DNA of 64,000 nucleotides from Escherichia coli 042 (GCF_000027125.1 NC_017626.1), one strand, 5' to 3'; counted from the first letter of the stretch, positions 26,950 through 27,155 are shown. Program-made: numbers and translations. Notes: generated by a model not told the origin, from the sequence alone.

Positions 26950-27155
26950 ATGCCGGATGCGGCGTGAACGCCTTATCCGGCCTACGGCTCGGTTTGTAGG
27001 CCTGATAAGACGCGCCAGCGTCGCATCAGGCTCCGGGTGCCGGATGCGGCGTAAACGCCTTATCCGGCCTACGGCTCGGATTTGTAGGCCTGATAAGACG
27101 CGCCAGCGTCGCATCAGGCACAGGATGCGGCGTAAAATGCCTTATCCGGCATTAA
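26950..27155. repeat. BIME/REP array (about 2.5 tandem palindromic units) between nrdA and nrdB
   Basis: Repeated GCCGGATGCGGCGTRAACGCCTTATCCGGCCTACG...GCCTGATAAGACGCGCCAGCGTCGCATCAGGC units. Confidence 0.85.

Follow-up and report, generated by a model that had tools for sequence, protein, structure and literature searches.

A polymorphic five-REP BIME-2 array occupies the nrdA-nrdB spacer of Escherichia coli 042

REP palindromes are combined into BIMEs of distinct classes. A BIME-1 is a single pair of Y and Z1 units with a long L linker, often with an IHF site, while a BIME-2 is built of Y and Z2 units in many tandem copies, with short linkers and a copy number that varies among strains (Ton-Hoang et al. 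2012, PMC3333891). BIMEs are cleaved and recombined in vitro by TnpA-REP (PMC3333891). At the DNA level, gyrase sites are enriched in BIME-2 elements, mainly in their Y units, and increase when transcription is blocked, according to Sutormin et al. 2019 (PMC6379681). At the RNA level, a recent preprint (bioRxiv 10.64898/2026.03.23.713779) describes REP325, in yjdMN, as an array that stabilises the upstream message and attenuates the downstream gene. It also reports a genome-wide upstream bias in tandem gene pairs that contain REPs, and it describes REP effects as context dependent, with half-lives that are not uniformly changed by REPs. REP325 is also the origin of naRNA4, which consists of one Y hairpin and one Z2 hairpin. 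A nucleoid-condensing role was proposed for this RNA (naRNA4 source paper), and it is contradicted by the preprint (bioRxiv 10.64898/2026.03.23.713779). Finally, the RepRanger paper (PMC12306157) deals with REPs situated within 15 nt of a stop codon, which are held to make ribosomes stall and to lower the translation of the upstream gene, and it names the nrdAB REP transcript among them, citing Liang, Rudd and Deutscher 2015.

The array between nrdA and nrdB is already known, as a catalogued REP/BIME-2 element that is ordinary for E. coli. Sutormin et al. 2019 (PMC6379681) tabulate the K-12 locus in their supplement, as the entry “BIMEs2 ... 202 ... nrdA>-nrdB>”. Literature searches combining nrdA/nrdB with REP terms returned nothing beyond this gyrase table and the stop-proximal citation, and nrdA is unmentioned in the RNase R review and in the 2026 REP preprint. 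The K-12 RefSeq record carries no repeat_region feature in the nrdA-nrdB spacer.

The window analysed here is a 64,000-nt stretch of E. coli 042 DNA. The nrdA product aligns over its entire length with the NCBIfam profile NF006578 (1-761/761, 1644 bits) and the gene ends in a TGA stop codon at 26940-26942, while the nrdB product, taken from the ATG at 27176, aligns over its entire length with NF006576 (1-376/376, 807.8 bits). The yfaE gene lies downstream of nrdB, and its product likewise has a match in NCBIfam. Over a 701-nt query that spans the spacer, identity is 100% with E. coli Ecol_316 and 97.9% with K-12 strains. The features of the locus are as follows.

24657-26942, plus strand: nrdA, class Ia ribonucleotide reductase alpha subunit, 761 aa (ORF list, NCBIfam and RefSeq of matching genomes)
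26943-27175, plus strand: nrdA-nrdB intercistronic spacer, 233 bp, a length as in K-12 MG1655 (sequence and K-12 comparison)
26945-27175, plus strand: spurious 77-codon N-terminal extension of nrdB, giving a 453-aa ORF (open frame from TTG 26945)
26951-27152, no strand assigned: whole BIME-2 array, 202 bp, five REPs alternating in orientation, period 87-88 bp (repeat search, pattern matches and Rfam)
26952-26985, plus strand: Y REP copy 1, GCCGGATGCGGCGTGAACGCCTTATCCGGCCTAC, with CTAC at the 3′ end (hairpin of -21.3 kcal/mol)
26986-26995, no strand assigned: linker GGCTCGGTTT, running from the CTAC of Y copy 1 to the GTAG of Z2 copy 1 (sequence)
26996-27031, minus strand: Z2 REP copy 1, inverted, reading GTAGGCCTGATAAGACGCGCCAGCGTCGCATCAGGC on the plus strand (hairpin of -22.1 kcal/mol)
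27032-27038, no strand assigned: linker TCCGGGT (sequence)
27039-27072, plus strand: Y REP copy 2 (reverse complement matching the naRNA4 consensus Y hairpin at every position)
27073-27083, no strand assigned: linker GGCTCGGATTT (sequence)
27084-27119, minus strand: Z2 REP copy 2, inverted and identical to Z2 copy 1 (exact 36-nt match)
27123-27152, plus strand: terminal degenerate Y-like REP, GGATGCGGCGTAAAATGCCTTATCCGGCAT, without the left GCC foot and the CTAC tail (hairpin of -11.8 kcal/mol)
27165-27168, plus strand: Shine-Dalgarno-like AGGA, 7 nt 5′ of the nrdB ATG and 12 nt 3′ of the last REP
27176-28306, plus strand: nrdB, class Ia ribonucleotide reductase beta subunit, 376 aa, starting at ATG 27176 (NCBIfam and RefSeq)

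The array thus covers 202 bp of the 233-bp spacer and lies entirely between the two coding sequences, with its REPs in the order Y(+), Z2(-), Y(+), Z2(-) and a degenerate Y′(+). The initial annotation recognised a REP/BIME array here, and the repeats, the Rfam match and the tabulation of the same K-12 locus as a 202-bp BIMEs2 all bear this out. It was also right that the unit is tandemly repeated, while its estimate of about 2.5 copies of a ~100-bp unit has to be revised to about 2.3 copies of an 87-88-bp unit. The repeat search resolves direct-repeat families of 45 and 48 nt, spaced by 87/88 bp with 94-96% identity, together with two shorter three-copy families whose spacings are 87+82 and 87+81. 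Exact matches to the 34-nt Y and the 36-nt Z2 occur twice each, with none expected in shuffles; these search patterns were drawn from the window itself and prove repetition only, not family membership. Tandem Repeats Finder left the array unreported, both on 26500-27600 (minimum score 30) and on the whole window. This silence is a miss of the tool: the repeat is clear by the repeat search and by direct reading.

Repeats elsewhere in the window are of other kinds. The sole repeat that Tandem Repeats Finder reports lies at 40581-40652 and comprises three copies of a 24-bp unit, TGGCAGGAAGGCAAAATAGAAGGT, with 70% matches; it falls inside a 319-aa ORF (39807-40766) and is probably a repeated 8-residue peptide motif. 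A single REP-like palindrome, reading GCCGGATGTGGTGCGAGCACCTTATCCGGC on the minus strand, is present at 20169-20198. It lies 9 nt past the stop of the plus-strand ORF 19390-20160, and on its other side is a convergent ORF of 1246 aa (20221-23961), identified by position as yfaL.

Are the units of the nrdA-nrdB array genuine REPs? The 34-nt Y and the 36-nt Z2 both fall in the 30-40-nt range of REP palindromes, contain unpaired internal positions, and fold singly into hairpins of -21.3 to -22.1 kcal/mol. Four of the five units have the GTAG/CTAC foot, with CTAC following both full Y units and GTAG preceding both Z2 units. The terminal degenerate unit is the one without it; in other strains, which carry the 1-REP allele, this Y-like unit forms a complete palindrome. 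As expected of a high-copy extragenic REP, the 701-nt query matches a median of at least 36 places per E. coli genome; one match covers query positions 251-286 alone, which is the first Y unit. A match to the REP consensus and a palindromic fold were the two points on which the initial annotation staked its proposal, and both were found. The Rfam naRNA4 model RF02564 scores 82.3 bits (gathering score 59.5), and, when compared with the naRNA4 consensus, which was derived independently from another locus, the Y hairpin shows no difference and the Z2 hairpin a single loop mismatch. The spacer RNA folds to -122.5 kcal/mol with a z-score of -7.1 against dinucleotide shuffles, none of the 200 shuffles being as good, and the minus strand of the spacer folds with a z-score of -5.8.

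The nrdA-nrdB array is a BIME-2, not a BIME-1, because it combines Y with Z2, is tandem, has linkers of 3-11 nt throughout and lacks the IHF core consensus. Its Y and Z2 units alternate, and its copy number varies among strains.

The comparison of repeat copy number across strains, which the initial annotation had proposed, reveals an array that is highly polymorphic. The alleles and their shares are listed below; the shares come from evenly spaced rows of a ranked match list, together with the alleles that were fetched, and are approximate.

5-REP allele, 233 bp, with variants of 241 bp (E. coli B) and 226 bp (O55:H7, O157): about 44% of sampled rows
3-REP allele, 145 bp: about 19% of sampled rows
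4-REP allele of a different subtype, 189 bp: about 5% of sampled rows
1-REP allele (complete REP), 65 bp: about 2% of sampled rows
No-REP allele, 88 bp: about 31% of sampled rows

A dedicated search for the REP-less allele found it in 1684 of 5425 complete E. coli genomes (31%). The differences in allele length, 88 bp and 168 bp, are the direct-repeat distances inside the array, and because of this equality the allele lengths point to unequal recombination or slippage between the array's own repeats. The 88-bp REP-less spacer has a strong hairpin of its own, CCCCTCTCCCC..GGGAGAGGGG, and the whole spacer folds to -39 kcal/mol.

Several of these variant spacers have features of their own. The REP-less palindrome, CCCCTCTCCCC..GGGAGAGGGG..GGGTGAGGGG, occurs in S1-JOR-02-A and SE15 (loci L007 and L008, positions 244-331), is single copy at megablast sensitivity, and has a longer relative that fills the Pseudocitrobacter spacer (L030). 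We take it to resemble the boxC-type enterobacterial repeats. In the 189-bp allele of MS1266 (L005, 244-432), diverged Y-like units alternate with a short-loop unit, GCCGGATGCGCTTCGCTTATCCGGCCTAC, giving four REPs. Judging from its sequence, this allele indicates that the array was replaced rather than simply changed in copy number.

The initial annotation suggested that the array binds IHF or gyrase. The gyrase half of this suggestion stands: the K-12 allele, which is four substitutions away from that of the window, is documented to be cleaved in vivo by DNA gyrase. The cleavage data were obtained in vivo on the allele of K-12 W3110, and the table of Sutormin et al. 2019 (PMC6379681) gives, for the nrdA-nrdB entry, 2 Cfx, 3 RifCfx, 0 Micro and 3 Oxo sites, corresponding to ciprofloxacin, rifampicin plus ciprofloxacin, microcin B17 and oxolinic acid, respectively. 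The table note for the same entry reads “Espeli, Boccard 1997: 2 cuts” (cited via PMC6379681). The IHF half does not stand, as the array is a BIME-2 and holds no core consensus for this protein within one mismatch.

What does the array do for the operon? Very probably, this catalogued E. coli nrdA-nrdB BIME-2 with its five REPs acts as a dispensable, expandable block of hairpins, shielding the nrdA mRNA, attenuating the read-through into nrdB and drawing gyrase to the site. The array would be transcribed within the nrdAB-yfaE mRNA, giving a row of hairpins of -21 to -22 kcal/mol each. These hairpins would form a barrier to 3′-to-5′ exonucleases, so that the nrdA segment would outlast the remaining message, and, by analogy with REP325 in yjdMN, they may partly attenuate the read-through into nrdB. 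The first hairpin, less than 15 nt from the stop codon, would hinder terminating ribosomes and may thereby reduce the translation of NrdA. At the DNA level, the Y units would provide a gyrase site that is independent of transcription, and the array itself would grow and shrink through recombination between its own direct repeats. We infer the RNA-level effects at nrdAB by analogy, and on the same footing an effect on the nrdA:nrdB ratio, which the initial annotation had raised, is plausible. No promoter-like site was found on either strand between 26700 and 27400. As the spacer contains neither a T-run terminator nor a promoter-like site, nrdB should depend on read-through.

Since the spacer at this position is an unrelated one in about a third of E. 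coli genomes, the array is dispensable, and for the same reason its effects should be modulatory only and not essential to the operon. Whatever the array contributes is not required for ribonucleotide reductase function, and it could be near neutral. E. coli thus offers a natural allelic series of 5, 3, 1 and 0 REPs, plus an unrelated hairpin, at an essential and highly expressed operon. This series could help to discriminate among the competing ideas about REPs, which are that they stabilise mRNA, attenuate transcripts, stall ribosomes or recruit gyrase.

Next, we considered the same spacer in other Enterobacterales. A pattern for the NrdA C-terminus, scanned over species-representative genomes, located 120 loci, and 117 of their spacers could be delimited. 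These 117 spacers range from 42 to 240 bp, and 111 of them contain a hairpin of -10 kcal/mol or better. The hairpin follows the nrdA stop codon at a median distance of 7 nt and within 15 nt in 80 cases, and the median fold z-score of the set is -3.2. The E. albertii spacer holds an array of five REPs and is 240 bp long. Spacers of about 110 bp with a REP pair occur in Salmonella enterica subsp. arizonae and most Citrobacter, and spacers of about 100 bp with a related pair in Klebsiella, Raoultella and Kosakonia. In many genera the spacer is 50-60 bp long, and a GC hairpin followed by a T-run lies 2-7 nt past the nrdA stop, as in Kosakonia cowanii, Enterobacter soli, Buttiauxella, Cedecea and one C. 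freundii. The count of terminator-like spacers, 65 of 117, is an upper bound, the scan criteria being loose. The ACAGGA motif is retained in most of the other Enterobacterales spacers.

Two observations from this survey are noted separately. Terminator-like spacers (loci L010, L012, L052, L069, L079, L100, L123 and others) lie inside what is presumed to be a single operon. In E. albertii (L009), the two short head-side linkers, ACAG... and TCCGGGT, stand in the reverse order relative to E. coli; the comparison of the two sequences suggests that the array was rearranged independently in the two species.

The slot just past nrdA is filled by T-run GC hairpins, by REP pairs (Salmonella, Citrobacter, Klebsiella), by BIME-2 arrays (E. 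coli, E. albertii) and by the CCCCTCTCCCC/GGGAGAGGGG palindrome. The hairpins cannot be aligned between species groups, and their sequence families are unrelated. When 16 short spacers of other genera were aligned by structure, they yielded no consensus structure and no evidence of covariation. At the sequence level, this non-homology fits a turnover of the sequence that supplies the hairpin. Selection may then keep a stable hairpin near the nrdA stop rather than the REP array, with unrelated families filling the slot and with 5, 3, 1 or 0 REPs tuning NrdA:NrdB by lineage. We consider this proposal speculative and somewhat doubtful, and we offer it as a possibility only. The E. coli allelic series and the cross-species turnover of the hairpin are the points that might repay further work.

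Could the array simply be selfish or neutral repeat DNA that TnpA-REP/RAYT and unequal recombination have spread and amplified, without any selected effect on nrdAB? The extreme polymorphism within one species, with 5, 3, 1 or 0 REPs and a 4-REP array of another subtype, argues for such an origin, as do the 31% of genomes in which the array is missing and the allele differences that match the repeat spacings. It is also what would be expected from the strain-variable copy number of BIME-2 elements and from the action of TnpA-REP on BIMEs in vitro (PMC3333891). However, nearly all the Enterobacterales species keep a strong hairpin just past the nrdA stop, suggesting maintenance; the REP-less E. 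coli allele still has a structure of -39 kcal/mol; and the documented gyrase cleavage is at least one biochemical consequence of the array. We regard pure neutrality as possible, yet not the probable account. It is compatible with the hairpin block favoured above, the sole difference between the two being whether the effects are selected.

The Rfam match raises another question, namely whether the locus encodes a minus-strand small RNA of the naRNA4 family, nucleoid-associated and HU-binding, which would be antisense to the nrdAB transcript. The 82.3-bit match to RF02564 lies indeed on the minus strand, at 26999-27069, and a second match on the same strand, at 27087-27151, scores 53.7 bits. 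However, the model is merely a Y hairpin plus a Z2 hairpin, so that any BIME-2 unit matches it, and the plus strand matches as well, more weakly, at 41 bits. Moreover, the region from 26700 to 27400 offers no promoter-like site for such an RNA on either strand, and the strand known to be transcribed, that of the operon mRNA, carries the complement. The match, as judged from the sequence, reflects the composition of the model, a Y-Z2 pair, and not a separate gene; an antisense RNA of this kind is highly improbable.

A classical intrinsic (Rho-independent) terminator closing an nrdA-only transcript can be set aside with similar firmness. Species with short spacers (Kosakonia, Enterobacter soli, Buttiauxella, Cedecea) do have a GC hairpin and a T-run at this very position. 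The plus strand of the window spacer, in contrast, contains no hairpin followed by a T-run; its REP hairpins precede G/C-rich linkers, and nrdB and yfaE follow immediately, without a promoter-like site.

A BIME-1 or RIP-type element recruiting IHF would be a still more remote candidate. REP clusters of the BIME-1 class do hold an IHF site in their long L linker (PMC3333891), but here Y is combined with Z2 instead of Z1, the linkers measure 3-11 nt so that the long L linker is missing, and the locus is catalogued under BIME-2. The IHF core WATCAANNNNTTR is absent from the whole 64,000-nt window, and the relaxed pattern WATCARNNNNTTR finds its best matches in the spacer at two mismatches, with none within one.

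Least tenable of all, to the point of being practically untenable, is a coding spacer in which nrdB would start at TTG 26945 with a 77-aa arginine-rich N-terminal extension: the frame is open from 26945 to 28306, but the NrdB profile is complete (1-376/376) from ATG 27176 and no family matches the extension, every RefSeq annotation begins nrdB at the ATG, the SE15 and MS1266 alleles carry in-frame stops upstream of it, and the AGGA Shine-Dalgarno motif lies 7 nt ahead of it. The initial annotation had dismissed the 453-aa nrdB ORF as an artefact of reading through the array, and we agree: the RefSeq nrdB start is the ATG in 8 of the 8 alleles fetched, and the in-frame stops lie 9 codons (SE15) and 4 codons (MS1266) 5′ of it. 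The 77-codon extension, on this comparison of alleles and profiles, is evidently non-coding. ORF callers that take the longest frame would mis-start nrdB by 77 codons in strains with the present allele. The AGGA motif at 27165-27168 is unpaired in the centroid fold of the spacer RNA.

The nrdB start is also overlapped by another annotated frame. YoaM (b4779) is an 11-codon small protein of the K-12 annotation, encoded on the minus strand, and its counterpart in the window lies at 27142-27177 (minus strand). This ORF overlaps the nrdB start codon, has its 3′ end inside the terminal REP, and is retained in the window with one amino-acid change, which results from the substitution at 27173. Since REP sequence supplies its final codons and its stop, YoaM is impossible in the REP-less allele.

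How does the nrdA-nrdB array finally compare with the described systems? With the BIME-1/RIP/RIB elements it shares REP palindromes in inverse orientation. Those elements, however, are single copy and contain Z1 and a long conserved linker with an IHF site, none of which is found in the nrdA-nrdB array.

The resemblance to REP325 and naRNA1-6 (yjdM-yjdN) is closer. In both cases, tandem Y and Z2 units lie between two co-oriented genes of one operon, and the consensus of the unit is shared, as reflected in the 82 bits to the Rfam model. REP325 consists of six Y and Z2 repeats, compared with the about 2.3 units of the nrdA-nrdB array, and the orientation of the unit relative to the operon is opposite, the best model matches at nrdA-nrdB being on the minus strand.

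The locus also belongs to the stop-proximal class of Liang, Rudd and Deutscher 2015. With the last base of the nrdA stop codon at 26942 and the first of the Y stem at 26952, the foot of the first hairpin is 9 nt past the stop, inside the 15-nt limit. In the REP-less E. coli allele, the hairpin lies about 26 nt past the stop, as compared with 9 nt in the 5-REP allele; if the stop-proximal rule applies, strains with the two alleles should therefore differ.

The closest counterpart is the K-12 nrdA-nrdB BIME-2 itself, with which the array of E. coli 042 shares the locus, the 233-bp spacer, the order of the five REPs and the 202-bp extent. The two spacers differ by four substitutions, at 26966, 27048, 27053 and 27173: those at 26966 and 27053 fall in Y loops, that at 27048 falls in a Y stem, and that at 27173 lies next to the nrdB start.
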